A DNA stretch of 64,000 bases, taken from an uncultured virus (IMG/VR IMGVR_UViG_3300033075_000390) (taxonomy: Duplodnaviria > Heunggongvirae > Uroviricota > Caudoviricetes). Position numbers and translations under genes: made by a program. The notes under the pieces are model-generated. The model was not told the origin of the DNA. It saw only the letters and a program-made list of their open reading frames with translations, and made no database searches. The stretch lies in IMG/VR virus record IMGVR_UViG_3300033075_000390; one strand, written 5' to 3'. Shown here piece by piece: positions 2,627-47,162 of this stretch (positions are counted from its first letter, which is position 1; every line of letters begins with the position of its first letter).

Positions 2627-3943
2627 TTACTTAACTAAATCTTCATCAGAAGTTTCTAACCATTTAAAATATAAATCCCTCATCTCCTTACTAGGCATGA
2701 TAAGATACATCTTCTCTTTCTTACGAACACTTCCACGAAATATCCATTGTACCATACTGCCAATAGCAAAGAGTTCTTTATCAATAACAACACCCTTAGA
2801 ATGACAGAGGTTCCATAACACAGTATTAGGGTTCTTACCAATCAAGTAGATTAATACACTTTTGTTTGAATAGTCATTAGTAGCTCTTGCATCTGAGTAT
2901 AACCAATCAGCACGACTAAAACCTTTCCCTTTAATTAAGGGGCGTTTCTTAATCTTACCTTTCTCAGACACGTAATCATCGTATTCATCACTATCAGTTG
3001 TCCAATTAGCTTTAGGGCAAGTAACGAGAATATTCTCTGTCTTTGCTTTGGTGATACGAACACAACTTTCAACCGCTTTTCTGATCTTTTCTACAACACT
3101 TTCAACAGCAGAGTTGCCCCACCAAAATTGAGAGTAAGAGTATTTTTCAATGCTCCTTAAAGAGGGTGTAACTATAACTTCAATACAGTCTTTGATATAA
3201 GATTTAACTTCTTCCGTACTTCGATGTAACTCAGGCTTAACACGAACAACTTCAATGTTATTAATCTTACACCAAGCAGACATAAAACTGCCTTCAAACA
3301 GATATGTCAACACCCATACTTCATTAAAAGAAGATAAGATGGATACAGGATATTCCCACACCAACAACTCACCATTCACAAAGAATATACAACCAGCTTC
3401 ACTTAGTTTAATTAATTCACTAAACTCCCAATTATCATCAGGCAGTAAATCCTTCTCTCTGTGGTACACCAACTTAAGGGACTCGTCATCTACACTAAAG
3501 ATACCCTGTTCGATTAGCAGTGCTAGAGATTTCTTACTAATCCCCTTAAACTGTTTGTAAGCATCTAAGCACTCATCAATAACAAGTATGTTATCATAGT
3601 CTTTAATGATTTCAGAACTAGATGAATCAAGATTTAGGAAAAGGTTGTGTGTTGCTGCAATATTCTTACCTTGATGTAACAACTCTAAAGAATGGTGTTT
3701 CTTACTCCCTTTAAGCGGTATAGGATATTTAAACCTCATCTCAGGAAGTTGTCTCTGTATACGACCATCTAGGTACTTGTTTGTCTGGTTGCACTTAACA
3801 CCACCAACTTCTGTAAGCAAAGGAGATAAGTATACAAACTGTTTAAACTTACCAGAGTCATTCCACTCCTTCATCTTGTTCAACATCCAATGAGATTTAC
3901 CACTTGACATGATCTCATCAACCAAATATATTTTCAATTGCAC
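2627..3943 (-). CDS. SF2 (DEAD/DEAH-like) helicase-fold protein, paralog 1
   Basis: Walker A-like MSSGKS, Walker B ILVIDECLD, LTYLF, RATN and QWIFR motifs shared with 42005-43288; likely TTG start at 3937 after GGAGG. Confidence 0.7.
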   Translation of the reverse strand: MQLKIYLVDEIMSSGKSHWMLNKMKEWNDSGKFKQFVYLSPLLTEVGGVKCNQTNKYLDGRIQRQLPEMRFKYPIPLKGSKKHHSLELLHQGKNIAATHNLFLNLDSSSSEIIKDYDNILVIDECLDAYKQFKGISKKSLALLIEQGIFSVDDESLKLVYHREKDLLPDDNWEFSELIKLSEAGCIFFVNGELLVWEYPVSILSSFNEVWVLTYLFEGSFMSAWCKINNIEVVRVKPELHRSTEEVKSYIKDCIEVIVTPSLRSIEKYSYSQFWWGNSAVESVVEKIRKAVESCVRITKAKTENILVTCPKANWTTDSDEYDDYVSEKGKIKKRPLIKGKGFSRADWLYSDARATNDYSNKSVLIYLIGKNPNTVLWNLCHSKGVVIDKELFAIGSMVQWIFRGSVRKKEKMYLIMPSKEMRDLYFKWLETSDEDLVK

Positions 3944-9327: not shown

Positions 9328-10104
9328 TCAATCTGTGATCTCAATTACCCAGTTCATTAAAGCTTCATAAACTCTAGGGTCAATTTGATCTTTCCACTTT
9401 TCAGCTAAAGATTTAATGTATGCTTCTTTAACAGGTTTATAAGCATAGAAAGCTTCTTCAGGTGTATCATAAGTACCTAACGATTCCCACTTATACCCTC
9501 GTTGTATTCTAGCTCTGTATCTTGTTTTGGTGCTATTATAAATAACTCCCTGTGGGAAAGAGCCTCGAACACTCTTGTTATTAGTTAGAGCAACATTAAT
9601 TTCTGATGGCACAATACAACAAGTATCTTCTGAGTATACCTTATTACCTTTAATTAGAATGTCTTTATCTAAATGCCAACCTTCTTGCTCACATCCGATC
9701 TGTGAGTAATACCAAGACTTGAACTTAGAAAAGTGTCGGAATGTTTCAGAGGAAGTGCAAGCCTCGTAAGTTGGATTATTTGTCTTATTTTTCGGGTTAT
9801 AACATCTCTGCATCATACCATTCCATTTCTTGTATAGAGGGTCACACCTACCACCTCTACCAACACTTTTAGGTATGTCCATAACACCATATTTGTGAGT
9901 GTCATGTACTTCGGAGTCTTTTAAAATACCAGTTGTCAAAGCGGATGCTGTGGTATTTTTAATTGCACCTGTATTTAAAAACTTTACAGTGATATTATGA
10001 CTGTCTATGTATTCAGTAACTTCAACATCTCCATAATTGTTCGTTTTAAACACAGTCCCTTCATATTTCTCTTTAGCATCTAATGTGCGTTTATGTACCA
10101 TCAA
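9328..10104 (-). mobile_element. free-standing HNH-like/AP2 endonuclease, family copy 1
   Basis: W..M..RCY, HLDKDIL.KGN..YS..TC...P.EIN core, AP2-like LG.Y.T.EEA segment, ends EITD; stop fused to GAGAGC-TTCG-GCTCTC terminator. Confidence 0.8.
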
Positions 10105-10274
10105 CTCTTTACTCCTCTAATTAAACTTTTCTATAGGATTTTGACTTCCTATTCTGTGTACCGCAGCTTTTTAAAATATCGTAACGTTTTGATATTGCTA
10201 TAGAAATCTCTATATGATTTAAAATATATAGGAAATTCAAAGTTGAATTTTCAATCCTTATATGATTATTTACA

Positions 10275-13948: not shown

Positions 13949-14635
13949 CTAATCTGTGAGTAAGTTGAAATCAAAATCGTATTGATCTTTCTTGTTCAAC
14001 ATAAACAACTTAATAAAAGCGTTAGTTGCACATGGAGCTTTCTGTAACAGTTCTATTAGTACTTCTTTAGCTACAACACGGTGTTCCTTTTGTGTACTAA
14101 CATGAGTTCGAGAAAGGCAGTAGAACAACCATGAACGCAAGCTTGCATTGAAGTACATCTTGGTTGATGTTAGACCAATCGGCAGTAAACTTCTAGACAA
14201 CTCCTTGGCAATCCCTTTATCGAGAGCTTGTTCGTACAACTTAAAAGCATGATGTTGCAGTTGAAACTGTGCGTTTATCCACCACTGGCTTAACTCTAAA
14301 TCTTCTGATACAAAACTGTTCTGACGGTTCTTCTCATCCTGCACACGACACTCTCGTAACTCTGACTTCATATTTGAGCAATCAGCATACCTTTGTGACC
14401 ACTCTTGAGGTTTAAGTGTCTGATGACGTAGTAATTGAATACCAACATCTTTCTCTGTATTAATCTCAAAGGTTAGATTAACCATGTCTAGGGGAGACCA
14501 ATGTCCTTCACGGATAAGGTAGTTCATTAACCCTTCATACTTGGGATTATCTTGATTCTCACTAGACACTCGTGCTAAAAATACAACCTTTTGATCAATA
14601 TTTTCTGGTGCATCGAATAGTACAACTTGTTTCAA
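13949..14635 (-). CDS. thyX: flavin-dependent thymidylate synthase
   Basis: ARVS, GHWSP, QLLRH, EWSQRY, KELSR.LLP and QKEHR motifs. Confidence 0.92.
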   Translation of the reverse strand: MKQVVLFDAPENIDQKVVFLARVSSENQDNPKYEGLMNYLIREGHWSPLDMVNLTFEINTEKDVGIQLLRHQTLKPQEWSQRYADCSNMKSELRECRVQDEKNRQNSFVSEDLELSQWWINAQFQLQHHAFKLYEQALDKGIAKELSRSLLPIGLTSTKMYFNASLRSWLFYCLSRTHVSTQKEHRVVAKEVLIELLQKAPCATNAFIKLFMLNKKDQYDFDFNLLTD

Positions 14636-15135
14636 TTTACTTCTCCTTTAAATGCAAAATCTTTCTGTAACTCTTCGTATTTTACCTTAACAACAGCTTC
14701 AGCTTCCTGTATGCTTTCATGCATCCCTAAATAGTACCTAACGCCGTCTACATTTACTAATACCTTCCATTTCGACCCGTCTTTATATACACCTTTCACG
14801 CCACTGATAGTGTCTTTATTTGGCTTACAATTCCAACGGTTTTCCTTCTTAGAAGCTTCTCTAAGATTTTCAATTCTATTATTTGTAGGGTTTCCATCTA
14901 TATGATCAACCAATCTCGGTAAATACTTATGGAACATCAAAAATATTAAACGGTGTTGTCTGTGACTTTTATTATCCACACGTACATCATAGTACCCCGT
15001 AGACTTGTTTAGATTCACAGCAATGTCTCCAATTTTTGCTTGACCGTTGACAGTTATTTTCCTCACTAACCACCCGTCCTTGTACTCAAACAGTTCATGT
15101 GCTCGGTCAAATAACTCTAATATTTCACTCATCAT
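14632..15135 (-). mobile_element. HNH endonuclease with AP2-like C-terminus
   Basis: HRLIF...VDHIDGNPTNNRIENLR, SGVKGV, YLG..E..EA. Confidence 0.9.
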
Positions 15136-17298: not shown

Positions 17299-17407
17299 AA
17301 CTTTCTCCTTAATTGGTATTGCAACATATTTTCAATAATTAAAGAATATAACAACTACTCTCGAATTACAATACCAATATCAGATTATTTTAAACTATTT
17401 CTTCACC

Positions 17408-17611
17408 TCACTTAAAAAATTTATGATTTCCTATTGTACAGGTATGTGTTAACTTTTTCAACCAATTTCTATTTGTTTTAACATGTACAAAATACAAAGC
17501 ACCTCTACTCACATCTTTGTGTTTACCATCAACCACCTCTTGTGCTAGACGTTTAGCTCTTTCATACTGCTCTTTCTCTTTAACCTTTGGATTATGTTTA
17601 GTCCAAGAAAA
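17408..17611 (-). pseudogene. orphan 3' half of an SleB-like cell wall hydrolase gene
   Basis: Start-less frame FSWTKHNPKVKEKEQYERAKRLAQEVVDGKHKDVSRGALYF...IGNHKFFK* aligns with the C-terminus of 18471-18956. Confidence 0.9.
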
Positions 17612-17633
17612 ATAAAAAGAGGGCTTTTGCCCT

Positions 17634-18410
17634 CTAATCTGTTATTTCAATTTTCCAGTTTACAAGAGCATCGTAGACACGAGGGTCGATCCGATCTTTC
17701 CACTTGTTTGCTACTTCTTTGATGTAAGCTTCTTTAGCTTGCTTGTAAGCGTAGAAAGCTTCTTCCTTTGTGTCAAAAACTCCCAATGCTGTTTCTTGTT
17801 TGTTTATTGAAACTCTTGCTCTAAATTTACTACCTTTAGTTGTGACACCTATTGGTAACAAACCCCTTGTCGACCTACTGTTCAGAATTAAATTGTTAAT
17901 CTCTTGTGGAACAAACACGCACGTATTTGGTGAGTACTCAGTATTACCTTTAATCAAAATATCCTTATCTAAAGCGAATGGTTTACCAAACTCATCAACA
18001 CTGTTATAACCAATTTGAGATTTACTCCAATCAATAAAATCAGAAGCGCAGAAAAATATTTCTGAGCATGTGGTTTGTTCATAAGAAGTGTGTCTGCCTT
18101 TCCATAGCGGGTCAAAACACCTTTGCAGAACTCCATACCATGTCTTCAAAAGTTTACGACTATCTTTACATTTGTTGTCGTATCCGTAACCAATGTAACC
18201 CACACCGTAGTTTGTCTTTGCTAGTAGATCAACAACACAACCTTCCCTAATAGAATACATATCTGTCATGTTTAATCCACCAGTGTTTTCGAACTGAATG
18301 TACACCCTTGTATAGTGTTCATACCGTATTACCGTAAACCTACCACAACCATTACTTTCAAAAGTTTTACCAACAGTGTTATTAATATTTTGCAAAGTCG
18401 ATTTCTTCAA
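17634..18410 (-). mobile_element. free-standing HNH-like/AP2 endonuclease, family copy 2
   Basis: LDKDILIKGN..YS..TC.F.P.EIN, ends EITD; probable TTG start at 18410 after GAGGAG; stop fused to GAGGGC-AAAA-GCCCTC terminator. Confidence 0.8.
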
Positions 18411-18470
18411 GTAATTCTCCTCAGTTTTTAAAACTGATATTTTACAACACATATGTAAAGAAAGAAAGTA

Positions 18471-18956
18471 TTATTTAAAGAAACTGTGATTTCCAATTCT
18501 TACTGTAAGTTTTGTGTTTTTCGGAGCTTTATGATGCGCGTTGAAATAAATCGCCCCACATGTCACGTCTTTGTGCTTTCCACCTAAGACTTCGTGAACC
18601 AATTGTTTAGCCTTGTCGTACTCTTTAGGTTCTTTGATTGTCTTACCTTTACCCCACCACTCAAACTGGTTAGGTTGCGCAATTACTTTACAAGGTGTTG
18701 ATGGAAACCTACTATCTTTAGTCCTGTTTAGTACAACAAATATTGTTGCTAACATACCTTTCTCGCCATCGCCCCTGCTTTCGTGGTATGTATTAAGCGA
18801 AAGACACTCTAATTGAGCTTTAGAGAGCGTTTGAGTTTGAAACTGTTTAGGATTAGTCTCAGCCTGTAAAGTTGCTGCAATCGTAGATGAGAGAGCGAGA
18901 ACAGCACATATTGAGATACTTCTTGTTAGATTCTTTAATTTGATATTTAATTTCAA
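18471..18956 (-). CDS. SleB-like cell wall hydrolase (Hydrolase_2) with signal peptide
   Basis: CL...YHESRG.....VVLNR...FP.T.C.VI.QP.QF...GA.YF...IGNH.FF. Confidence 0.9.
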   Translation of the reverse strand: MKLNIKLKNLTRSISICAVLALSSTIAATLQAETNPKQFQTQTLSKAQLECLSLNTYHESRGDGEKGMLATIFVVLNRTKDSRFPSTPCKVIAQPNQFEWWGKGKTIKEPKEYDKAKQLVHEVLGGKHKDVTCGAIYFNAHHKAPKNTKLTVRIGNHSFFK

Positions 18957-19015
18957 AATTAATTCCTATTTTGTTGATAAAATAAAAAGGGAAGCATTTA
19001 GCCTCCCTTATTTGT

Positions 19016-19045
19016 ATAATAACACTATTTGTTTAGTTTTGTCAA
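19016..19045 (-). promoter_or_regulatory. sigma70 promoter for the hydrolase operon
   Basis: TTGACA-18-TATTAT on minus strand. Confidence 0.6.
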
Positions 19046-19046
19046 A

Positions 19047-20699
19047 TCAACGACAACAATAGATGTAAGCTTCTTTATGTTTGTAGCACTCAGACAAGTA
19101 TCTACACAAGAAGTCAATCAAACCTTCAAATGTTCCCCAACCGTTACTTGGTAAGTAGTCTACTAAACGATCTTCAAACTTTAGTAAGTTTTTAATTAAG
19201 TCTGGTAATGTTTTCAACACCAAAACAGCAGGAACTTCACCATTCTTTAAACCAAACAACTCATCATTTCTCCAAATCAACTCATAATATTCTTTACCTA
19301 CAAGCTTACCGCACTCATCGACAATCTTATTTAGGTTGTGTGTAATGTTTAAACAAACTTGTTGTTCAACATCTTCACCATCGTTATCTAAGAAATAAAT
19401 ACTTAAACTCATACGTTGCTCCCAAACTCTTTAAGCACATCTGCTTTAATAATTGTCTTACGGTTACGAGAATATTCTTCAAATGGTAATTGCTCTAAAC
19501 CTAACACATCAGTACAAGACCAAATATAGTCTTTATCCGTTAAGATGTAGCACTTGTAATTCTTAACTTGTGAAAGATCATCAACACCAAAGAAATCTAA
19601 ACAAGCTATAATCATCTCAGCAGCATAAGCTGTACCAACTCTACGTTGTTTCTCTTTGTCATAAGTATCTAACACCATATTAAAACAAGAGAAACTACCT
19701 TTACCTTCTAACTCAACCCAAACATCTAATATTAGAATCTTACGGTCTTGGTAAGATGTACACACTTTTGTTACGTTACACAATACTTTATTCATTTTAA
19801 ATCTCCTTTAGTTTATATTAATACCTAGTTGTAATACTACTTACTTGTTAGTGCAGAACGTAAGGCTGCTACAACTTGCTTGACTTCTTTTTCGGTGCGC
19901 CATGCACCGAATTGAACAAAACCCCAATTCATTGGTGTATCTTCAAGTGTTGTTTCCGCATACCCCTTCGTTTCATCACTACATAAGAAATAAACATAAT
20001 CACCAACTTTAGGCTCAAAAGGTGCAGGAATCTTTATTTCAATCTTTACAGTGCTTGGTTTGATTCGGAATTGGTAAACATCATCAAGATACCAAGAAAC
20101 TACAAGTTGCTTTGAATCACAACAAACCCATTTATCAGTAAAGTATTCAACATCTTTACCGTCAGCCAATGCTCGTAACGCATCAGCACCACTAATCAAG
20201 CCTTGTTCTTTTTTGCTTTTAGTAACAAGGTCTCTAAGTTGTGGTAAGGTGAGTTCTTCACAGTCATCATAATCTTCAAAAAACTCAACTCTGTCAGTAT
20301 AAACCTTACCGCCTGAAAGACAAACTATTCCAAATTTATCACAAATATGCTCAGAACCACCAAGCACACAAAACAACTCATGAGCTTCTTTACTTTCAGC
20401 TTCGTTATTTACACGTATTTTATAATTACCTAACATAATCAATCTCCTAAGCCTTCAATGAACTCTTGTAATGTTCCATTTGTATAAGGGACATTACAAT
20501 ATGATTCTTCCTGTTGTAAATCAATGTTATTAACACAAATAACACCATCTTTGTAAATATACATCTCATCATTGGTTAAATGAAACAAATAATAATCTCC
20601 ATCTACAAGTTCTGAAACATCTGTATTCAAGAAATCATTATCTTCTATGATTGTAACACGTTCTGTATTATCACACACATACATCTCCTTAACTAGCAA
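19047..20699 (-). CDS. four hypothetical proteins (19047-19412, 19409-19795, 19837-20442, 20439-20699)
   Basis: Overlapping stop/start junctions and RBSs. Confidence 0.7.
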
Positions 20700-20871
20700 T
20701 CTTTAACAATTCAACAAACTTCTCTGCTTGTTGTTGTGTATCAAAATGAAACGATGTATTTGAATTAAAATCTCTATCAGCTTTTAATCTAACACAAACA
20801 CAGTCGTAATAACAATAATCTACAAACACTTCCCACACACGATTACGTTTATCTGTAAACTCAATATTCAT
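20689..20871 (-). CDS. small hypothetical protein, paralog of 28535-28723
   Basis: Shares TD.R.R.WE.FVD.CYYD..CVR...DRDFNS..SFHF. Confidence 0.75.
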   Translation of the reverse strand: MNIEFTDKRNRVWEVFVDYCYYDCVCVRLKADRDFNSNTSFHFDTQQQAEKFVELLKIAS

Positions 20872-22597: not shown

Positions 22598-22797
22598 ATA
22601 AACAATCTTTAGAATTACATATCGAAACGCTAACTCAAATGCTAGTAGGTTTGATTTTAGGGTATGTAATTCTTAGAGCGTTCGGATTAACAAATTCTCA
22701 AAGTATAACTTTACAGTTTATTTTCTTTGTTGTATCCTACGCTAGAAGTTACACGATATGTTGGTTGTTTAAAGAAGTTATCTTTAAGCAGAAATGA
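22594..22797 (+). CDS. small two-TM membrane protein
   Basis: Two hydrophobic segments, SYARSY motif; ATGA overlap with the MTase. Confidence 0.65.
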   Translation: MNKQSLELHIETLTQMLVGLILGYVILRAFGLTNSQSITLQFIFFVVSYARSYTICWLFKEVIFKQK

Positions 22798-22813
22798 TTT
22801 TAGGAGAAATGTT

Positions 22814-23611
22814 GTGAGTAAAGAAATGAAAGATACGAAAGAAGTTAAAGAATTGAGTGGGGTTGGAACAAAAATAATAGTAGGGGAGATTTTCGATACG
22901 TTAAATTATGGCAGACTCATAGTTACGGAATATAAAGACAGTTACAATTTAAAAGTTAAGTTTATGGAAACTGGGTACGAAACTGTAACAAAAGCAAACC
23001 AGTTAAGAAAAGGTGAGGTTAAAGATAGATTATTACCTTCAGTCTACGGTGTTGGTATCATTGGTGACACCGTAACTAAAGTTAATGGTAAAACTTTAAA
23101 AGAATATATATTGTGGAAAAGTATGCTGTGTAGATGTTATGATATAAAATATTCCAATAAGTACCCCACTTATCAAAATAGCGAGGTATCTGATAGTTTT
23201 AAATACTTCCCTTACTTTAAAGAGTGGTGCAATAAGCAAATTGGTTATGACCAGCAAGGTTGGGCTTTAGATAAAGATATTCTAGTTAAAGGAAATAAAT
23301 TATACTCTGAAGATACTTGTTGTTTTGTTCCTAAAGAGATTAACAATTTACTTGTTAAGTGCGATTCATCAAGAGGAGAGTACCCTGTAGGTGTAAGGTA
23401 TCGTAAAAGGTTTGATAAGTTTGAGTCACAGGTAACGTTATATGGTAAAATGGTATATTTAGGTACTTTTAATACACCTGAAGAAGCATTCTGTGCTTAC
23501 AAGGAGGTTAAAGAAGCTTACATTAAAGATGTAGCTGACAAGTGGAAAGATCGGATTGATCCTCGTGTTTATGATGCTTTAATGAATTATCAAGTTGAAA
23601 TAACAGATTAA
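22814..23611 (+). mobile_element. free-standing HNH-like/AP2 endonuclease, family copy 3
   Basis: WKSML.RCY, LDKDILVKGN.LYS..TCCFVP.EIN, ends EITD; GTG start after AGGAG. Confidence 0.8.
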
Positions 23612-23622
23612 GGAGAAAAGTT

Positions 23623-25443
23623 GTGAAAAAAGTTAAAGAAGTGCAAGGTACTGTTCTTGGGAAGTTCCCGTGTGGGAGCTGTGGTTCACAGGATAATTTA
23701 GTTGTCTATGTTAAGCATAACGAACAAGGTGAAGAGTACCTTGATGCTAGTTGTTTTACACCTAGCTGTGAGAACAAGTATATGACTGAAGCTATGTTGA
23801 AAGAACAAGGTGTATTGGATGAAAACACAGTAATTCCTAAAGTTAAACCAGTAGTTAAGACAGCTATCACGAAAGCGGAGTATAAGGCTCTTATTGCTCG
23901 TACAAGTCATGATACAACTCAACCTGATGGTAGTTTATATCGTTCTATTAAACCTGAAACAGCGCACTTCTACGGACATTTATTTGAGCGTGACTCTACT
24001 GGGGAAATTATCCGCACATATTACCCTGAGACAAAGAGTACATTTAAAGGTGAATTAAACTCTTTACGTGGTTATAAATCTCGTGATTTACCTAAAGCGT
24101 TTGGTCGTCATAATATTGGTATAGTTGGTACTAGCAATGATTTGAGCGGAAGTCATAAGTTTACTTCAGGAGGAAAGTGGTTACTGATTGTGGCGGGTGA
24201 AGAAGACAAGTTAGCTGCTGCACAAATGCTACGTGATTATCAAATTCAACGTAAGCAAGAGGATTATGATCGTATTGCGGTTGTTGGTATTCATTGTGGT
24301 GAAGGTAGTTTATCTAAAGTTTGTGCTAACAGTTATGATTTCATTGATAGCTTTGAAGAAGTCATCCTTTGTATGGATAATGACGAAGCAGGACGTAAAG
24401 CTGTTCAAGAAGCCATTAAGGTGTTGCCTGAAAACAAAGTAAAGGTTATGGTAACTTCACTTAAAGACTGTTCTGAGATGCTACAAACAGGTAAACAGAA
24501 GCAATTTATTAGTGACTTTTATAGTGCAAAACCTTTAACTCCTGATGAAGTTAAAACATCCAAACAAGCGGACGATGAGATTGAAGAGGAGTTAGGTCGT
24601 TGTAAAATTCCTTTACCTCCTTTCATGCACCGATTACAGAAACACATGGCTGGTGGTATCCCTTTAGGTTATATGATTAATCTAGGAGCTATCACAGGTG
24701 GAGGGAAAACGACCATCATTAATGAAATGATTTACTACTGGTTGTTCAACGCTGATGTTAAGATCGGTATCTTGAGTTTAGAATTAACAGCAGGACAATA
24801 CCAAACAACATTGTTGTCACGCCACATCGGGTTTAAACTAGCTTTGATTGAAGACCCGAAAGAGGCTGTAGCTTTTGTTAAACAACCTCACATTATTGAG
24901 AAACGTAAGGAGTTACGTGAAAATGAGTATGGGGAAGAGAGGTACGTTTTATTGGACGAACGCTCAGGAAGTCTTGAATCTGTTAAAAATCAAATTCTTA
25001 AACTAATTAAGAAATACGATTGTAAATTAATCGTCATCGATCCCGTTAACGATTTGTTCGAAAGTTGTAGCTTAGAACAACAGACAGGTTTTATTAAGTT
25101 TTTAAAGACTGTAATCAAAGATGGTGTTTCAATCTTTAATGTCTGCCACCTTACTAAAGGAAAAACGCAAACAGATCGTGATGGTAATCGTATAGTAAGA
25201 CGTTTAACCGAGGATGATTTCTCAGGCGTTAGTAACCTAGTTAAATCTGGTGGTTGTAATATTGCTGCTACTCGTGATAAACTTGCCGAAGATGAAACAG
25301 AACAGAACAGTACAGACATCGAAGTTTTAAAGTGCAGGTGGAGTGGAAATACAGGTTATGCTGGCAGTTGGTACTATGATAACCTGACACACACATTGTA
25401 TGATAAGGAAGATTTTATGGAAAAACAACGTAGTAATTTTTAA
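23623..25443 (+). CDS. DNA primase-helicase (T7 gp4-like)
   Basis: CGSCGSQD...C.T..C zinc domain, TOPRIM (GEED, MDNDEAG), DnaB-like GGGKTT Walker A, LELT, IVIDP, KCRWSG. Confidence 0.92.
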   Translation: MKKVKEVQGTVLGKFPCGSCGSQDNLVVYVKHNEQGEEYLDASCFTPSCENKYMTEAMLKEQGVLDENTVIPKVKPVVKTAITKAEYKALIARTSHDTTQPDGSLYRSIKPETAHFYGHLFERDSTGEIIRTYYPETKSTFKGELNSLRGYKSRDLPKAFGRHNIGIVGTSNDLSGSHKFTSGGKWLLIVAGEEDKLAAAQMLRDYQIQRKQEDYDRIAVVGIHCGEGSLSKVCANSYDFIDSFEEVILCMDNDEAGRKAVQEAIKVLPENKVKVMVTSLKDCSEMLQTGKQKQFISDFYSAKPLTPDEVKTSKQADDEIEEELGRCKIPLPPFMHRLQKHMAGGIPLGYMINLGAITGGGKTTIINEMIYYWLFNADVKIGILSLELTAGQYQTTLLSRHIGFKLALIEDPKEAVAFVKQPHIIEKRKELRENEYGEERYVLLDERSGSLESVKNQILKLIKKYDCKLIVIDPVNDLFESCSLEQQTGFIKFLKTVIKDGVSIFNVCHLTKGKTQTDRDGNRIVRRLTEDDFSGVSNLVKSGGCNIAATRDKLAEDETEQNSTDIEVLKCRWSGNTGYAGSWYYDNLTHTLYDKEDFMEKQRSNF

Positions 25444-25487
25444 ATAATAAACCCTCTTAACTAGAGGGTAACTGATCAGGAGACGTT

Positions 25488-26246
25488 ATGAGTTTAAAAG
25501 TCGGAGATATTCTACCTACATCACGATGGGGTGATATTAAAATTATAGATTATATTAATAGTAAAAACGTAACAGTAGAGTTTATAAATACGGGAGGTGT
25601 TAAAGTAACAAATAGTAGTAATATTTACAGAGGGGCTGTCAAGGATGAGTTACAACCCGATCTCGTTTATGGTGTTGGATATAACAACATAAAGAACTGT
25701 ATCAAGAAAGGGAGTGAGTATGAATTTGAATATAAGCTGCGGACTCGTATGCTTTGGAGATGTTACGACACAACCTATATGAAACAGTTTCCAACTTACG
25801 CCAATAAAACAGTAAGTGAAGAGTGGTTGATATTTAGTAACTTCGTTGAAGATGTTAGAAAATTTGTAGGTTACGATAAAGCTAAATATGAAACATGGGA
25901 GTTGGATAAGGATATTCTGGTTAAAGGTAATACTGTATACTCTAAAAGCACTTGTTGTTTTGCACCTAAACAGTTGAACTACCTACTTATCAATCCTAAA
26001 GGTAATAGAAATAATTACCCTATCGGTGTACACAAGAAGTGTGATCGTAAAAAGTATAGTGTTAAGATGAGTAAGGACAACATTAATGTTTCGTTAGGCG
26101 CTTTCGACACACCTGAAGAAGCTTTCTATGTTTACAAAGAAGCTAAAGAAACTTACATTAAAGAGGTAGCTGAAAAGTGGAAAGATCAGATCGACCCTAA
26201 AGTTTACGAAGCTTTAATGAAGTATGAGGTAGAAATAACCGACTAA
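25488..26246 (+). mobile_element. free-standing HNH-like/AP2 endonuclease, family copy 4
   Basis: ML.RCY, WELDKDILVKGN..YS..TCCF.P, ends EITD. Confidence 0.8.
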
Positions 26247-28534: not shown

Positions 28535-28723
28535 ATGGAAATTATTAAACGTGTAACAGACAGTCGTAAACGTACTTGGGAGTGTTTTGTTGATCGTTGT
28601 TACTACGATATGTATTGTGTACGAGTAGAGGGAGATAGAGATTTTAATTCTTCTTTATCTTTTCATTTCTGTACAGTAGAAGAAGCTTTTGATTTTATGA
28701 ATCTATTAAAACAATCTCATTGA
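28535..28723 (+). CDS. small hypothetical protein, paralog of 20689-20871
   Basis: Shared CYYD/DRDFNS/SFHF motifs. Confidence 0.75.
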   Translation: MEIIKRVTDSRKRTWECFVDRCYYDMYCVRVEGDRDFNSSLSFHFCTVEEAFDFMNLLKQSH

Positions 28724-32367: not shown

Positions 32368-32866
32368 AAACGATGTAGAACATCTATACACAACAAAAGA
32401 CGTAGCTAGAGTACGAGATAAGCTCAAGCAAGAACAGAACAATCTCGACCCCATAACTGGTTTAGAAATACCTGACAAACAATCTGTACTTGATCACTGT
32501 CACGACAGTCAATTTGTACGTGCTGTACTGCACAGACAAACTAATGCTGTATTAGGTAAGATAGAGAACCTTGAAATGAGGTTCTTGTCTTGGTGGTATG
32601 ATGGTACACTTTCAGACTTCCTCAGAGGTTGTGCTGATTACCTTGATAAGGAACACGAGCAAAAGTACCTACATCCCGCATTCATTAAGAAACTTCAAGT
32701 TCAATTCAACAAATTAAATGAAAAACAGAAACAGAATGTTTTATCTTATTTTGGTGAAGAAAAAGGTTGTAATGCTACACAAAGGAAGCTATACTTTAAA
32801 AAGTTTGTATTAAAGCGAACACACACTATGCAAGAAATACTTGACGTCATCGAAAGGAGTGTATAA
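32360..32866 (+). CDS. recombination endonuclease VII-like protein
   Basis: Q...DPITG....VLDHCH....VRAVLH...N..LGK. Confidence 0.85.
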   Translation: MIENDVEHLYTTKDVARVRDKLKQEQNNLDPITGLEIPDKQSVLDHCHDSQFVRAVLHRQTNAVLGKIENLEMRFLSWWYDGTLSDFLRGCADYLDKEHEQKYLHPAFIKKLQVQFNKLNEKQKQNVLSYFGEEKGCNATQRKLYFKKFVLKRTHTMQEILDVIERSV

Positions 32867-32867
32867 C

Positions 32868-33653
32868 TTGAACGGTTTTAAACAAATAAATAAAGATTTG
32901 TACGAAGGTTTAACATTTGATACAAAATTTAATGGTAAACTAGAGATTGTGGAGTACATTAGTAATAAAAATGTTGTGGTGAAGTTTGTTGATACAGGTT
33001 ACGTGACACAAACAACCTTATCAGAAATACAGAGAGGTTCGGTTAAAGATAGGTTAAGGGCTTCTGTGTTTGGCGTAGGAGTTGTAGGGGACGCACCAAC
33101 CCGTATAGATGGTAAAGAGTTAAGGGAATACGTATTGTGGTCAGGAGTTGTTGAACGATGTTATTGTGGTAAGGCACAAGGAAGAAACGCCAAATCTTAT
33201 GAAGATTGTAGTATGTCTGAAAACTTTAGATATTACCATTACTTCAAAGATTGGTGTAATAATCAGATAGGTTTTGATCAAGCTGGGTGGGAACTAGATA
33301 AAGATATTCTCGTTAAAGGGAATAGGATTTACTCTGAAGATGTTTGTGTCTTTGTTCCTCATGCAATCAACAGCCTATTGTTGACAAACGAATCTAAAAG
33401 AGGGGAATATCCAATCGGAGTGACTTTCGATAAAAGGAACTCAAAGTTTAGGGTTTGTATTAACAAATACGGTAAACATTCGCATGTCGGGCACTACAGA
33501 ACAATACGTGAAGCTTCCCTAGCTTACAAAGACGCTAAGGAGAGGTATGTTAAAGAGGTGGCTACAAGATACCGAGACCAAATCGACCCTAGAGTATACG
33601 AGGCTCTCATGGTTTGGGAAGTTGAAGAAAAGCTATTGTTGCCTATAAATTAA
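32868..33653 (+). mobile_element. free-standing HNH-like/AP2 endonuclease, family copy 5
   Basis: WELDKDILVKGN..YSE..C.FVP..IN; probable TTG start after AAGGAG; C-terminus altered (EEKLLLPIN instead of EITD). Confidence 0.8.
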
Positions 33654-36119: not shown

Positions 36120-37374
36120 GTGATTAAAGAAGTAATCAAAGCAGACGGAAGTATTGAGAAGTTTGATTTAGATAAGCTGTCTAAGTGGGCGAAGTACGCT
36201 GCTAAGGTTGGAGGAGATTGGAGTGAGTTAGCTATTGAGACTTTCACTAAACTCCCTGAGTTGTGCCACAGTAAAGATATTCACCAAGCAATGATTGATG
36301 TTTGCTACAGTAAGCAGGATTTAGTTTATAGTCGTGTAGCGTCTCGTTTAGAGACAGCTCAATTACGAAAGAATATTGAACGTCAATTACATATCAAAGT
36401 AACTAAAGCATCATTTAAAGAGATTCGAGATGTTCTTATTGAGAAAGGTGTTTGGTGTAAAGACACCATCCCTGAATATTCAGAGAAACAAGAAGGATTG
36501 TTTGAGGAGTTAAAACAAGTTGATTTAGAATCTTGGCAAGTAAGTCAATGGGTAGATAAGTACCTTTTAAAGATGAACGATGTAACAGTTGAAACTCCAG
36601 TAATCGCAGCTATAGGTATTGGTTTAGGGTTACACGGAGATACTCAAGATGCTTATGACTTAGCTCGTGATATTATCTATTCTCGTACTAATCTACCTAC
36701 ACCTGTTTTGAACGGTATCCGTAACGGAGACTTTAATGGTGTTTCTTGTTGTGTTATTAGTGCAGGAGACAGTGTAGAGAGTATTGAAGTTGCACAGCAT
36801 TTAGCTGTTCGTATGACGGCTAAGAAAGCAGGGATTGGTGTTGAATTTACAACACGTTCTAAAGGTAGTGATGTTAAAGGTGGTCGGATTAAGCACTTAG
36901 GTAAACATCCTATCTACAAACATACCGATTCAGGAGTAAAGCAATTCACGCAAGAGACTCGTGGTGGTAGTGCTACAGTAGGTTTTACTTGTATTGACCC
37001 TGAAGTTTACAATATCGCTTTATGGAAGTCACAGCGAATTGACATCGAGCAACGCTTAGACCGCTTAGATTATAGCTTCATTTTCAATGATGCTTTCTTA
37101 GATGCTGTTATTAATCGTAAAGATTGGTATTTGTTTGATTATAATGATGCTAAACATTTGTACAAAGCTTTCTATGTGTCTGATGCAGAGACATACACCA
37201 AAACTGTTAGTCAGTTAGTTGCTGATGGTGTTAAGCATACGAAAGTACAAGCTTTGGATTTGATTAAACACATTCTTATGATTCGACAAGAAACAGGACG
37301 CATGTACTTCTTTAACGTAAGTCGTGCTAATACGCATACACCGTTTTTAGATGTAATCAAACTCTCTAATCTGT
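36120..37374 (+). CDS. nrdA: ribonucleotide reductase large subunit, exon 1
   Basis: ATP-cone start (VIKADGS.E.FD), PTP, SCC, AGIG, RGGS; ends ...KLSNL + T of the Cys codon. Confidence 0.92.
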
Positions 37375-37626
37375 AAACTGATGCAGCTTTAAATAGAAAT
37401 ATTTATCGAATAACTATGTGAACTCGGTGAAAGCTAAGTTGTTGTGGTAACAATATGCTAATACCGAACCAAGCTCGAAAGAGAAGGTGTAGAGACTATC
37501 CTGTAAAGGAGTAGGGGTTAAGTAACCTCGAAGCGCATAGAACCTTAACGAGTAATGTTGAAGGTTGTGATATAGTCCGACACTCATTGAAAGATGAGGT
37601 GGTGTAACGAACCACATAACAGAAAG
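37375..37626 (+). mobile_element. group I intron (ORF-less, 252 nt, probably IA-type)
   Basis: 5' exon ends in U and pairs with GCAG (P1 U.G); intron ends in G; P7 GACTA(37494)/TAGTC(37573); P3 CTATGTG/CGCATAG; removal restores SNLCQEI in frame. Confidence 0.92.
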
Positions 37627-38567
37627 GTCAAGAGATTTGTTTACCAACAAAACCGTATGAAAGTATGGAAGATTTATACTTAGATAATGGGTGTGAATCA
37701 GAAACAGCTTTCTGTTCACTTGGGGCGATTGTTCCTGTGAATATTAAAGATGATGTAGAGTACAAACGAGTTGCTTATACTTTAGTTAAAACTATTAACA
37801 AACTTATTGTTAAGTGCCCAAAGATGACTAAGAACCACGAACGTACAATGTTAGAACGTATGTCTTTAGGTGTAGGTATTACAGGCTTAGCTGAGTACCT
37901 TTACAAACAAGATTATGATTATGATGGTAGTGAATCTAGTTTAGAGTTCGTATCCGACTTAGCTGAAAAGCATTGTTTTTATCTGTATAAAGCAAGTCAA
38001 AAGCTTTCAGAAGAAACAGGTGTTGAGGTTAAAGGTGTCAATTTAAATTGGCTACCTGTTGATACTAAACTTGGTAAGTTTACACCTAAAATGGATTGGG
38101 AAAGTATTCGTGGTAAACCTCGTGTAAACTCTGTTCTAATTGCTCACATGCCTACTGAAAGTAGTGCTGTAGCTTCTGGTGTTACTAACGGTCTTTACCC
38201 TCCACGTAAGGTTGTTATCAACAAGAAGTCACGTAAAGGTGTTGTTCAATTCATCTGTAAAGGGTTTGAAGAAGGTAAGAATCTTTATGCTTGGGATGTA
38301 GACAACGTAGTGTTAAGTCGTTATTATAGCGCAGTACAAGATTGGTGTGATCAAGGTATTAGTGCAGATACTTACTTTGATCCTCGTAAGTTTGTGAATG
38401 GTAAGAAGCCTTTATCTTTATTACTTAAAGAATGGGTAGCTCACTTTAAACTTGGGAACAAGAGTATGTATTATGTAAACACATATGATGATGATGAGGT
38501 TAGTATCTTTGATTTAATTCAAACTGCTGAGGTACAAGAAGAAGATTGCGAGTCTTGTAAGTTATAA
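37627..38567 (+). CDS. nrdA: ribonucleotide reductase large subunit, exon 2
   Basis: (C)QEICLPT, AFCSLGA, LGVGITGLA, AHMPTESS, DQGISAD, MYY, C-terminal CESCKL. Confidence 0.92.
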
Positions 38568-42004: not shown

Positions 42005-43288
42005 TTGGCACAAAATATTGAAATATGTTCATTCCTTATGGGGAGTAGTAAGACAAACAAAATTATCCAATGGATGAAAAACCAACCATCAGAGAAGTTT
42101 ATTTATGTCATTCCTAATCTAAGTGAATTAGAAGATAGTGATGACAACCCTTCTAGGATTCTTAGTATTGGTTTCATTACTCCTGAATTGAGTACAGAAC
42201 ACAAGACTAAATCTGAAGCTCTACTTTATCTACTTAAACAAGGTGCTAATATTGCTTGCACACAAAGTCTATATAAGATGTTATCTAAAGTTCACTTAGA
42301 CATCATAAAGAGTTCTCAGTACAATATTATATTAGATGAAGAATTGTCTTTGATTGATGTGTATGAACAAGCTAGTACATCTGACTTAGTATCATTACTA
42401 AACGATGGTAAAGTTAAGATTAATGAAGAAGATGGTATGGTTGTATGGTGTGCTAATGATGCTATCACTAGACCTTATCAAGATAACAAACATAAACATC
42501 ATCTATTCTATAAACATATTGTGTCTGAGTATATTTATGCAGGTAGGTGTGTCATTGAAGATGGTATCTATCAAAAGGTTATTATGGTTAGTCAAATAAC
42601 TAAAGAATTGGTTGCTTGTGCTAAACGGCTTGTAGTAATCACATACCTGTTTAAAGGGAGTACCTTAGACGCTTTTCTCAAGATCAAGGGTTTTAATATA
42701 ATTAAGTTTGAGGATATTGGTATTGTAGAACCTGCACTAGAGGAAGTTGTTAGTAGGATTAATCTATTACCTTACGAAACTAAGTTTACTAAATTAAAAC
42801 TAAACAGTACGTGGTGGAAGAATGCAAGTAAAGAGGATGTCGCATCAATAGGTAGGTATATTCGCAGGATTGCAGATACTTACGGTGGTGATAGGGATTT
42901 AGTAATGTGGACTTGTCCATCAGGAAGGGTTAAAACTGAAGCTAAAGCTGGGACAGTAAACTTCGTAGCACCAAAAGGATACTTGATTGATTCTAAGGGT
43001 AATAAAATTTGGTTGGGCTGTTCTGTACGTGCTACGAATAAATACGCACATAAAAAACTTACTATTCACTGTTTTAACAGGTATCCTCATACTGTCATTG
43101 ATTCTTACTTAAAAGATCATGGTGCTAAGATAGATGAAGATGTATATGCTATTTCTGAGTTACTACAGTGGTTATTTAGATCAAATTGCAGATTACCTGA
43201 TGGTTCTGTTACATTAGCTATCGCTAGTAAGAGAATGTATGATCTATATGTTGATTGGACAAAAGGAAGGTTTAAAGATGAATTTTAA
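42005..43288 (+). CDS. SF2 (DEAD/DEAH-like) helicase-fold protein, paralog 2
   Basis: Degenerate Walker A MGSSKT, IILDEELS, ITYLF, RATN, LQWLFRS; TTG start. Confidence 0.7.
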   Translation: MAQNIEICSFLMGSSKTNKIIQWMKNQPSEKFIYVIPNLSELEDSDDNPSRILSIGFITPELSTEHKTKSEALLYLLKQGANIACTQSLYKMLSKVHLDIIKSSQYNIILDEELSLIDVYEQASTSDLVSLLNDGKVKINEEDGMVVWCANDAITRPYQDNKHKHHLFYKHIVSEYIYAGRCVIEDGIYQKVIMVSQITKELVACAKRLVVITYLFKGSTLDAFLKIKGFNIIKFEDIGIVEPALEEVVSRINLLPYETKFTKLKLNSTWWKNASKEDVASIGRYIRRIADTYGGDRDLVMWTCPSGRVKTEAKAGTVNFVAPKGYLIDSKGNKIWLGCSVRATNKYAHKKLTIHCFNRYPHTVIDSYLKDHGAKIDEDVYAISELLQWLFRSNCRLPDGSVTLAIASKRMYDLYVDWTKGRFKDEF

Positions 43289-44122: not shown

Positions 44123-44527
44123 AGAACACATCAAGAAATGGTGTACGTGGTTATTTAATTATTGGTAAAATTTAAAAGGAAAAGACAATGAGTAACAAGT
44201 TACAAGAGTTTTATAACGCAAGCTACCCTATTCTGAGAAAGGTTGACAACTCAATTAATATTGAAATCGTTAACTCCCTTAGAGCAAATAGTTTGTATAT
44301 TGCAACAACATATTATTCAGAGTATTATGAAGATAACGGTGAGTATATTAAAACTATTGACTGCACTTTCTTTGCTTCATCTGTAAGAAGTTTGAGAAAG
44401 CAATTGAAAGACTTTTATTTGAATTATGATGAATTTTGAATAAACAAGACAAAGTGTATTGCATTTAATATTTAGGTGTAATATATTATGTGTAATACAC
44501 TACGTTTATCAGGTAACAGGAGGTGTT

Positions 44528-45007
44528 ATGGCTGTTGTGAAAAAGTATTTAGGTGGAAGCCAAACAGGTTGGTTGGAGCGTTTCATATTTAATTTTGATA
44601 CAGGTGATGTTTACAGAAACAACGGCACACTTGTAGGGAGATACGATAAGACTAGAGGTTATTACAGATTTGGATACAAATTAAACGGTAATAATTATGA
44701 AACAGCATTGCACAGGCTAGTGTTCTTTGCATATCATGGTTGGATTGATGATTCCTTAGTTATTGATCATATAGATGGTTGCAGTTCAAACAATTCTATT
44801 TCAAATTTAAGGCTGGTTACAGTAAAAGAGAATGCTGCAAATTCAAAATATTCAAGAGGTGGTCTTGTTGGTGCTAGAAAATATAAAGACAAGTGGGAAG
44901 CAGTTGTTGTTAAGAATGCTAAACTATTACACTATGAGATATTTGATACAGAACAAGAAGCTCACGAAAGCTACTTAAACTTTAAAAAACAGCAGAAGTC
45001 TAGTTAA
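44528..45007 (+). mobile_element. HNH endonuclease with AP2-like tail, flanked by direct repeats
   Basis: HRLVF...IDHIDG...NN.ISNLR....EN; F.TE.EA; ATG after GGAGG. Confidence 0.88.
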
Positions 45008-45051
45008 TATCTAGGTGTAATACGCTATATCTATCAACAGAGGAGATAAAT

Positions 45052-46469: not shown

Positions 46470-46553
46470 TTTATTTTCCTTATCTGCGATATTTATGTTG
46501 TTATTTATTTGTAATATATGTTATATTTGGTTTTTAATGTTATGGAGTTTATA

Positions 46554-47162
46554 ATGTCACGAAGAAAACTTGCATATGGTGTTGGTATTAACGATTGGTA
46601 CACCAATATTAGCAACGGTAGTAGTAAACATATTCCAGAATACAAAATGTGGCTAAGGATGTTGGAAAGGTCTTTAAGTGAAAAATGGAAAGCAGACCAC
46701 CCAACATACAAAGACGTGTCCGTAGACCCTTCATGGTACAGCATGACTGCATTCATCAAAGATGTTTCAACTCTTGTAGGTTATGATCAAGCAATTACTA
46801 ACGGTTGGCATTTAGATAAGGATTTATTAGTTAAAGGTAATAAACTTTATTCAAAAGATACTTGTTGTTTCTTACCTATCGAAATCAACTCTTTGATGGT
46901 AATGCACAGGTCTAGTAGAGGTGCTTACCCTAGCGGTGTCTGTCGTCGTAAAAGACAACCTAAACGTCCATATTGTGCTGTAATCCGCACAAGTGGTATA
47001 ATTAAGACGTTAGGTAATTATGCAACACCAGAAGAAGCTTTCTTAGCTTACAAAGAAGCTAAAGAAGCTTACATCAAAGAAGTAGCTAACAAATGGAAAG
47101 ATAATATTGACCCACGAGCTTATGATGCTTTAATGAATTGGAGTGTTGATATTACAGATTAG
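46554..47162 (+). mobile_element. free-standing HNH-like/AP2 endonuclease, family copy 6 (inverted inside lysis cassette)
   Basis: YGVG.ND, W..MLER, WHLDKDLL.KGN.LYS..TCCF.P.EIN, ends DITD; stop fused to GAGGG..CCCTC terminator. Confidence 0.8.

Follow-up and report, generated by a model that had tools for sequence, protein, structure and literature searches.

A 64,000-nucleotide (nt) stretch of DNA from an uncultured tailed phage (IMG/VR record IMGVR_UViG_3300033075_000390), called the window here, carries on its minus strand a cell-wall hydrolase gene followed by a nuclease gene, an intrinsic terminator and a second, start-less hydrolase end. A preliminary description had listed these four parts from the letters of the sequence, and all four lie where it had placed them. 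The intact gene (18956..18471) encodes a SleB/CwlJ-type hydrolase of 161 amino acids, an allele of type A over its whole length. It matches the Pfam family Hydrolase_2 with an E-value of 8.4e-20 and 71.7 bits, against a curated cut-off of 27, and the endolysin family PHROG 938 with an E-value of 2.5e-20; its N-terminus, judged from the sequence, resembles a signal peptide. Just upstream of its start, at 18987-19045 (-), lies a strong promoter-like element, TTGACA-18-TATTAT (11 of 12 positions, with TG), directly followed by a terminator-like hairpin at 19009-18987.

The open reading frame (ORF) of the nuclease (18452..17634, 272 amino acids from the first ATG) begins 18 nt past the hydrolase stop codon and in another frame. 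The TTG at 18410, which stands behind a GAGGAG at 18422-18417, appears more likely to be its start than the ATG at 18452. The terminator (17607..17635) overlaps the nuclease stop codon and abuts the second hydrolase piece; it consists of a 7-bp stem (17635-17618) and then TTTTTATTTTT, with a T-run to about 17607, and has a folding free energy of -13.5 kcal/mol with a z-score of -2.9. The second piece, termed the orphan (17611..17408), comprises 67 codons and a stop; its head is devoid of a start codon and its frame of internal stops. It matches positions 37-100 of the 100 positions of Hydrolase_2 (E-value 5.2e-9, 37.1 bits, cut-off 27), and 33 of 68 positions, or 49% of amino acids, are identical with residues 98-161 of the intact gene (E-value 2e-16). 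Lacking a start and standing behind a terminator, the orphan is probably silent. Its terminal 26 codons (17408..17488), the Y-type end (VHVKTNRNWLKKLTHTCTIGNHKFFK), form the replacement end of a second cassette in relatives, and an intergenic tail past the orphan (17299..17407) runs on into a downstream gene of 88 amino acids. The orphan had been described as starting exactly at a QF(S)W motif. The S-W block stands, since homology to intact alleles begins at TCTTGG (17608), a point that can be resolved only to about 5 nt; the F before it is merely the translation of the terminator T-run.

At the gathering threshold, Rfam gives no intron at this locus (its sole match in the window lies at 37365-37599), and the nuclease is a separate ORF past the hydrolase stop. 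Therefore, carriage by a group I intron or an intein does not apply here. The arrangement is also found outside the window record. An independent, near-identical contig (L001) has the same order of parts, and 20 public runs from ten studies contain parts of the stretch. A run from another study contains two relevant contigs: one of 2,789 nt is about 95% identical to the window over 17694-19161, and one of 477 nt extends from the nuclease end across the terminator into the orphan start (17538-17720) before it diverges. Because the near-identical contig and those from the other study span both the hydrolase-nuclease and the nuclease-orphan junction, the arrangement is not an accident of assembly. 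Other contigs differ in structure. In one from an RNA-library run, 18801 is connected to 17594, and 17490 is connected by way of 37 other letters to 18506; it represents a hydrolase gene that is intact, free of the cassette and orphan-like in its middle. Two runs contain contigs in which unlike, nuclease-free sequence follows the window-like 3′ part.

Hydrolase alleles and the orphan end

A scan of metagenomes yielded 80 further loci, and the counts of loci below refer to the 83 loci that are not copies of the window; nuclease genes were inspected in loci L002-L046. When the orphan was used as a query among longer proteins, 73 of 88 candidates proved to be full-length hydrolases. The best intact match (P0001) is 95% identical in amino acids over 99% of the orphan, and the genes of L027 and L041 are about 90% identical to it in nucleotides. 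These type-B genes differ from the type-A gene of the window along their entire length. Across contigs, both types occupy one slot, between an upstream gene of 121 amino acids and downstream genes of 88 and 145 amino acids, which identifies them as alleles of one locus. The cassette-free relatives with the orphan allele intact that the preliminary description had called for are thus found at the same locus. The stretch TKHNPKV at the start of the orphan, where type A has WGKGKTI, was considered as a local patch and rejected, as it is normal type-B sequence. Differences between the orphan and intact type-B genes are mostly silent, with a ratio of nonsynonymous to synonymous polymorphism (pN/pS) of 0.08-0.19 compared to 0.12-0.27 among intact genes, suggesting that the orphan has hardly decayed.

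Two further ideas about the alleles did not survive this comparison. The orphan had been taken for the old end of the very gene in front of it. Since the 5′ part of that gene is of type A and the orphan of type B, this cannot simply be so; the orphan may be what remained of a type-B gene after its front gave way to a whole type-A gene with its cassette, or it may have been carried along in later exchanges. A QFEW motif in the intact gene had likewise been proposed to mark the immune allele of the cassette. QFEW occurs as well in L010 and L014, with no nuclease gene in the available sequence beyond, and in L011, whose contig ends 81 nt past the gene; L016, which does carry the nuclease, has QFVW. 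The hydrolase family as a whole is strongly mosaic, with two main kinds of gene body and several kinds of ending in the last 25 codons. Both cassette junctions lie at invariant residues, namely W100 for the window type and F138 for the second cassette.

A second hydrolase piece is present in 8 of the 83 loci, the other 75 showing a single piece, and a nuclease gene of the family sits between the two pieces in seven of these eight. The survey for downstream orphan ends that had been suggested can also be read from the nuclease side: of the eight loci in which an entire nuclease gene follows the hydrolase and the contig continues for 90 nt or more, seven contain a second hydrolase piece, L023 being the exception. 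Related contigs show the hydrolase slot both with and without a nuclease gene, and three nuclease lineages are found behind the same hydrolase gene. The lineage of the window is also present in L012, whose contig ends inside the nuclease gene, and in L016, and the 3′ end of the nuclease gene and the terminator recur in L035. In the window, L016 and L035, the hairpin and the T-run are followed at once by TC(T/A)TGG, although the orphan behind this shared junction is of type B in the window and of type C in L016 and L035, the latter decayed. The orphan of L016 is 87% identical to an intact type-C gene in L038. That the right edge stands at the same S-W codons in three contigs and before two types of orphan supports the proposed entry at a conserved codon block.

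Three of these loci show features of their own. L035 (455-1377) holds a chimeric cassette, in which the nuclease is 79% identical to the second lineage described below, and the last codons, the terminator and the type-C orphan, which contains stops, are those of the lineage of the window; from this case, conserved 3′ ends of nuclease genes seem to serve as recombination points. L038 (1099-2908) contains full-length type-C and type-B hydrolases with a nuclease gene between them, the end of which overlaps the signal region of the second gene. In L020 (3-1411), the first copy, of type A, is cut by the contig start, the second is full-length, and two small ORFs lie between them.

Linkage of gene ends to nuclease genes

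The intact gene of the window was compared segment by segment, as nucleotide identity, with those of the two carriers of the same nuclease lineage (L012 and L016) and with 12 genes of non-carriers. In the signal region, L012 and L016 are 46% and 51% identical to the window, compared to up to 93% for non-carriers (L009), and in the N-terminal part they are 75% and 57% identical. The core is similar in all genes (92% and 88% for the carriers, 81-95% for non-carriers). From there on, the carriers are closest, with 91% and 90% in the middle (nt 295-411) compared to 66-85% for non-carriers, and 87% and 85% at the end compared to 51-74%. Overall, the 3′ part is 85-91% identical to the carriers and 51-85% to the non-carriers, whereas the 5′ parts are 46-75% identical to the carriers. 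The block shared by carriers, which reaches in the window from 18651 to 18471 (gene nt about 306-486), has its left end near gene nt 306-310, which places it 10-15 nt away from the codon that corresponds to the start of the orphan. The spacer and the nuclease start that follow the gene are 88-90% identical among carriers. Judged by these identities, the intact gene is a mosaic, the 5′ end of which is nearest to L009 and L002 and the 3′ part of which is of the carrier type. The comparison supports the earlier proposal of a mobile unit, in that the gene 3′ part, the nuclease gene and the terminator appear as a unit common to different 5′ gene backgrounds.

A second nuclease lineage, with a protein of 253 amino acids, stands behind the hydrolase in L004, L018, L027, L028, L035 and L041. 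Taking L004 as the reference, the others are 89-99% identical to it in the replacement end, formed by the last 88 nt of the gene, and 77-87% identical in the nuclease, compared to 40-80% for the gene upstream; the orphans of L018, L027 and L041 reach 55-71%. The step in identity falls exactly at a Y-F codon, and past the stop codon of the 253-amino-acid nuclease a short orphan starts at the same Y-F place. This orphan is of X-type behind type-A genes (L004 and L018) and of X′-type behind type-B genes (L027 and L041), so that it matches the type of the gene upstream in all four cases. The second cassette accordingly consists of 26 replacement codons and a stop, a GAGGT ribosome-binding site and the nuclease gene, and it appears to have entered at one codon of different alleles. 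It offers the sharper and cleanest case, with a single codon, two gene types and what looks like the recipient's own end left each time.

The two cassettes meet in the window. All six Y-type gene ends among the loci are directly followed by the 253-amino-acid nuclease gene, and the orphan of the window is the only Y-type end found without this gene behind it. As the orphan already bears the replacement end of the second cassette, the locus has been invaded or exchanged more than once. Either the second nuclease and its orphan were lost when the repeated gene ends recombined, or the Y-type end here represents the ancestral, nuclease-free form of that cassette; both fit. The tail past the orphan (17299-17407) is 93% identical to the stretch after the X-type orphan in L018, compared to 22-46% for four other loci, and the likeness begins after GAGGT. 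Within the Y-type codons, a promoter-like TTGAAA-17-TACAAT is present at 17433-17461 (-) and at the same place in L004, L018, L027, L028, L035 and L041. In the carriers it lies about 35 nt before the start of the 253-amino-acid nuclease, with the GAGGT past the stop as the ribosome-binding site of that gene, and the replacement gene end may thus carry expression signals of the nuclease. A scan for promoters performed at chance level, with 8 found and 7.7 expected.

The nuclease family and its phage

The nuclease of the window matches PHROG 953, annotated as HNH endonuclease, with an E-value of 9e-51, and its matches to the families of that name (PHROG 953, 374 and 2081) range from 9e-51 to 2.5e-25. 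A C-terminal AP2 domain, of a kind that binds DNA, is detected in nine of ten family members (best E-value 2e-9), and AP2 structures match residues 187-259 of the nuclease model. Pfam (E-value up to 1), a PDB profile search, and Foldseek and VIA-align with the whole model return only AP2 and a small N-terminal barrel. LAGLIDADG and GIY-YIG families were not found in the nuclease, which instead combines AP2 with a divergent HNH-like domain. Homologues of the family are present in 1,460 phage records, including Rheinheimera and Pseudomonas phages. In tblastn, the nuclease also matches a gene of ICP1_2006_B that directly follows the DNA polymerase gene, with 29% identity over 96% of the query and an E-value of 4e-21; by its position, this gene is probably gp59 of Barth et al. 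2023.

In the text available of the paper that describes the AP2-linked divergent-HNH (IPA-HNH) class, ICP1, Rheinheimera phages and Pseudomonas phage KIL4 are named among its lineages (PMC10448857). The nuclease of the window resembles this class in its C-terminal AP2 domain and in a putative nuclease domain too divergent for the HNH models of Pfam, in the many copies per genome that adjoin replication genes, and in homologues from the same ICP1, Rheinheimera and KIL4 lineages. Replacement gene ends and orphaned ends of host genes, as found here, are not part of the class as that text describes it (PMC10448857). The AP2 domain and the homology to ICP1 would place the nuclease in the IPA-HNH class, while its HNH part is suggested by weak fold matches. 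Nuclease activity and a cut site are predicted on the basis of the PHROG names, the homology to a predicted class and these fold matches.

The phage itself has a T7-like replication set of primase-helicase, gp2.5-like protein and DNA polymerase, and the window also encodes a split ribonucleotide reductase, a tape-measure protein and a major head protein. No close cultured phage was found: blastn returned only short matches to nuclease genes, and tblastn with the hydrolase as query reached no more than 35% identity. IMG/VR scans with a type-B protein and with the downstream 88-amino-acid gene returned only the near-identical contig. Within 64 kb, the window carries six paralogues of the AP2-linked nuclease family and two HNH_3 genes, the latter at 14632-15135 (-) and 44444-45004 (+). 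The five AP2-linked paralogues other than the one in the cassette lie at 9331-10116 (-), 22727-23611 (+), 25476-26243 (+), 32814-33650 (+) and 46515-47159 (+) and are 39-53% identical to each other in amino acids. The primase-helicase gene has one nuclease gene on either side. Around the seven nuclease genes outside the cassette, no duplicated flank better than an E-value of 0.033 was found. The footprints at 22802-23650 and 44465-45022 that had been thought related are nuclease genes of this plain kind, with a best flank at an E-value of 0.033 or above or with none, compared to 3.7e-14 at the hydrolase.

Other arrangements came to light beside these. Salmonella phage S113 (L089, 2011-2989) and Klebsiella phage BIS47 (L090, 1926-3049), which are unrelated phages, were considered as cultured examples of the same arrangement and rejected, because their HNH gene lies directly upstream of a SleB-type hydrolase; in BIS47, the hydrolase similarity extends about 165 nt upstream of the annotated start and reaches into the end of the HNH gene. 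In the window, the large subunit of ribonucleotide reductase is split into ORFs at 36120-37376 and 37665-38567 (+), which match positions 61-487 and 503-795 of PHROG 84. The gap of about 290 nt is free of a nuclease ORF, and the group I intron at 37365-37599 (Rfam RF00028, 70 bits, E-value 9.9e-16) lies between the two ORFs. Two pairs of paralogues stand on opposite strands, namely ORFs of 60 amino acids at 20689-20871 (-) and 28535-28720 (+) with 61.5% identity, and PHROG 2467 proteins of about 430 amino acids at 2627-3943 (-) and 42005-43288 (+) with 26% identity.

Probable homing with a spare gene end, and its alternatives

We consider it probable that the locus arose by intron- and intein-free homing, in which a free-standing cassette of gene 3′ part, nuclease gene and terminator enters a fixed codon block of a phage hydrolase gene and leaves the 3′ end of the recipient as an orphan. 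The co-inherited unit would reach from about codon 102 of the hydrolase through its stop, a conserved spacer with a ribosome-binding site and the nuclease gene to the terminator. Its right edge would abut codons 99-100 (S-W) of the resident allele, the 3′ half of which would persist past the terminator as an unexpressed orphan. During a mixed infection, the nuclease would cut cassette-free alleles at or near the conserved Q-x-S-W codons, and repair would be copied from the cassette-bearing phage, presumably in that direction, using the conserved gene core or DNA further upstream as the left arm and the orphan or downstream DNA as the right arm. The orphan could in this way aid further spread. 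The copied 3′ part would complete the hydrolase frame, and the insertion would split the recognition site, rendering carriers immune.

Several observations weigh against this account. The left edge in the window is soft, for the adjoining core is 81-95% conserved in all alleles, and the junction of the window type is known from only three contigs. The 5′ part of the intact gene and the orphan come from different allele families. Among the three carriers, identity is only about 70% between the nuclease genes, compared to about 96-97% for the middle block of the hydrolase, which indicates that the two have not always travelled together and that exchange also occurs within the unit. L023 has a related nuclease behind the hydrolase without an orphan, and L020 has two hydrolase copies with no nuclease gene between them. 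As for the enzyme, Pfam and the PDB profile search detect only AP2. For the middle domain, HNH nucleases rank first among the fold matches, though weakly (PacI with Z 5.3, a root-mean-square deviation of 4.3 and 95 aligned residues; further matches at an E-value of 0.64 with Foldseek and, for I-HmuI, 2.5), and the invariant motif L-D-K-D...K-G-N is devoid of a histidine at the canonical HNH place.

Some of these points would suit a different history, in which the arrangement is a recombination scar beside an ordinary intergenic homing endonuclease, made once by illegitimate or one-ended repair and then shuffled by homologous recombination. In that case, the gene 3′ part would have no function within a mobile unit, nor would the S-W junction be a target site. 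The soft left edge, the separate histories of nuclease and middle block, the unlike types of 5′ part and orphan, the plain arrangement in L023 and the mosaicism seen everywhere in the hydrolase family can all be read in this way. However, a single junction bears two allele types of orphan, and a second gene piece is present in seven of the eight testable nuclease-bearing loci. Moreover, the second lineage is sharp-edged on both sides, with an orphan of the recipient type in four of four cases across type-A and type-B genes, which would be hard to obtain from one scar and random shuffling. We regard such a scar as rather unlikely, although it is the strongest of the rival explanations.

If the orphan were a decayed tandem paralogue, the nuclease gene would have landed in the second copy of an ancestral A + B pair, or deleted its front, with nothing replaced. 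Tandem copies do exist, with two in L020, the first cut by the contig start, and two full ones around a nuclease gene in L038. Nevertheless, types A and B stand in the same slot with the same neighbours in single-copy contigs, and 75 of the 83 loci have a single hydrolase piece. The codon at which the orphan starts is constant within each nuclease lineage, and in the second lineage the short orphans are of the same type as the hydrolase gene that precedes them, so that a tandem origin appears quite improbable. An artefact, in which two strain variants of the hydrolase collapsed into one contig, might be suspected in an uncultured source for which many runs contain only parts of the stretch at very uneven depth. 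Such a chimera is scarcely credible in view of the independent near-identical contig with the same order, the contigs of the other study that cover the hydrolase with the nuclease and bridge the nuclease-terminator-orphan junction, and the diverged relatives (L016 and others) that repeat the architecture.

Beyond homing of a single cassette, a bolder extension is possible, which we put forward tentatively and with more doubt than belief. Competing cassettes might run a complete homing cycle within a coding sequence, at least two lineages each owning a fixed codon of this lysis-type gene of 160 codons. The private end of each cassette would complete the frame, destroy its own recognition site and so confer immunity, carry expression signals of the nuclease, and form with the orphan a diverged direct repeat through which the nuclease could later be deleted, giving an immune, nuclease-free allele. 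If this were true, the orphan of the window would be such a nuclease-free survivor, later overrun by the other cassette, and the nucleases would also be weapons against the hydrolase gene of a competitor in mixed infections.

The principle is a known one, contrary to the suggestion of the preliminary description that it was under-described. Mobile endonuclease ORFs (mORFs) with duplicated C-termini have been described in fungal mitochondria, in atp6 of Allomyces macrogynus and in atp6, atp9, cox2 and nad3 of Glomus (PMC3630166), and partial duplications of cob and atp6 in Endoconidiophora (PMC6279837). According to the parts of these accounts considered here, an endonuclease ORF and a foreign, in-phase C-terminal piece enter a protein gene with no splicing involved; the native C-terminus stays downstream as a duplicate, in some cases unexpressed, and is near to the genes of relatives, whereas the inserted piece is divergent. 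Correspondingly, the phage locus has a frame of 161 amino acids that continues uninterrupted into the carrier-type 3′ part and closes with a stop codon of its own, a nuclease ORF after it, and a retained end of native type downstream. It differs in belonging to a tailed phage rather than an organelle, in an AP2/divergent-HNH nuclease in place of the LAGLIDADG or GIY-YIG enzymes of the mORFs as described, and in a nuclease that is encoded apart from the hydrolase, with a ribosome-binding site of its own and a terminator, instead of being fused in phase. In addition, at least two cassettes with different sites compete here in one gene of 160 codons. The phage cassette works like an mORF but is no member of that group by descent.

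A 2011 paper is said to describe mobA of phage T4 with a 50-nt ribosomal bypass element in the topoisomerase gene. The cassette is similar to mobA in that a nuclease gene travels with extra sequence that keeps an interrupted essential gene working (bioRxiv 10.1101/2022.08.31.505936, in the portion available); mobA, as presented there, relies on translational bypass of the insert in a split gene, whereas a complete replacement end with its own stop is supplied here. The T4 genes SegB, SegF, SegG and MobE are likewise free-standing and adjoin conserved genes, they are inherited with flanking markers in mixed infections (co-conversion), and carriers differ at the presumed target (PMC2330249, PMC2790892 and PMC2988022, each as far as its available text goes). 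No displaced gene end is described in the text of these sources at hand, the T4 review having there no words that start with 'duplicat', while in the hydrolase gene the flank ends at a fixed codon and the 3′ end of the recipient survives as an orphan. In nrdA/mobE of Aeromonas phage Aeh1, a homing-endonuclease gene also lies inside a coding region with function kept and no splicing (PMC8351571, in the part consulted); both halves of nrdA are used according to that account, unlike the downstream half here, which is redundant and probably silent. In the full-text literature searched, from which most subscription journals are absent, no nuclease cassette that carries a replacement gene end was found to have been reported from a phage.

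Collectively, what is new is the class of host, the family of nuclease, and competing cassettes nested in one small gene. The locus suggests that a selfish nuclease gene can colonise a coding gene of a virus without splicing machinery by bringing a spare gene end. This would explain start-less gene tails behind HNH genes and abrupt switches of allele inside small phage genes. With one gene of 160 codons, at least two cassettes that have different sites and many natural alleles, it is a compact natural system in which the target choice, immunity, co-conversion and loss of homing endonucleases could be measured, and it would link the homing elements of phages to a mechanism so far described for fungal mitochondria.

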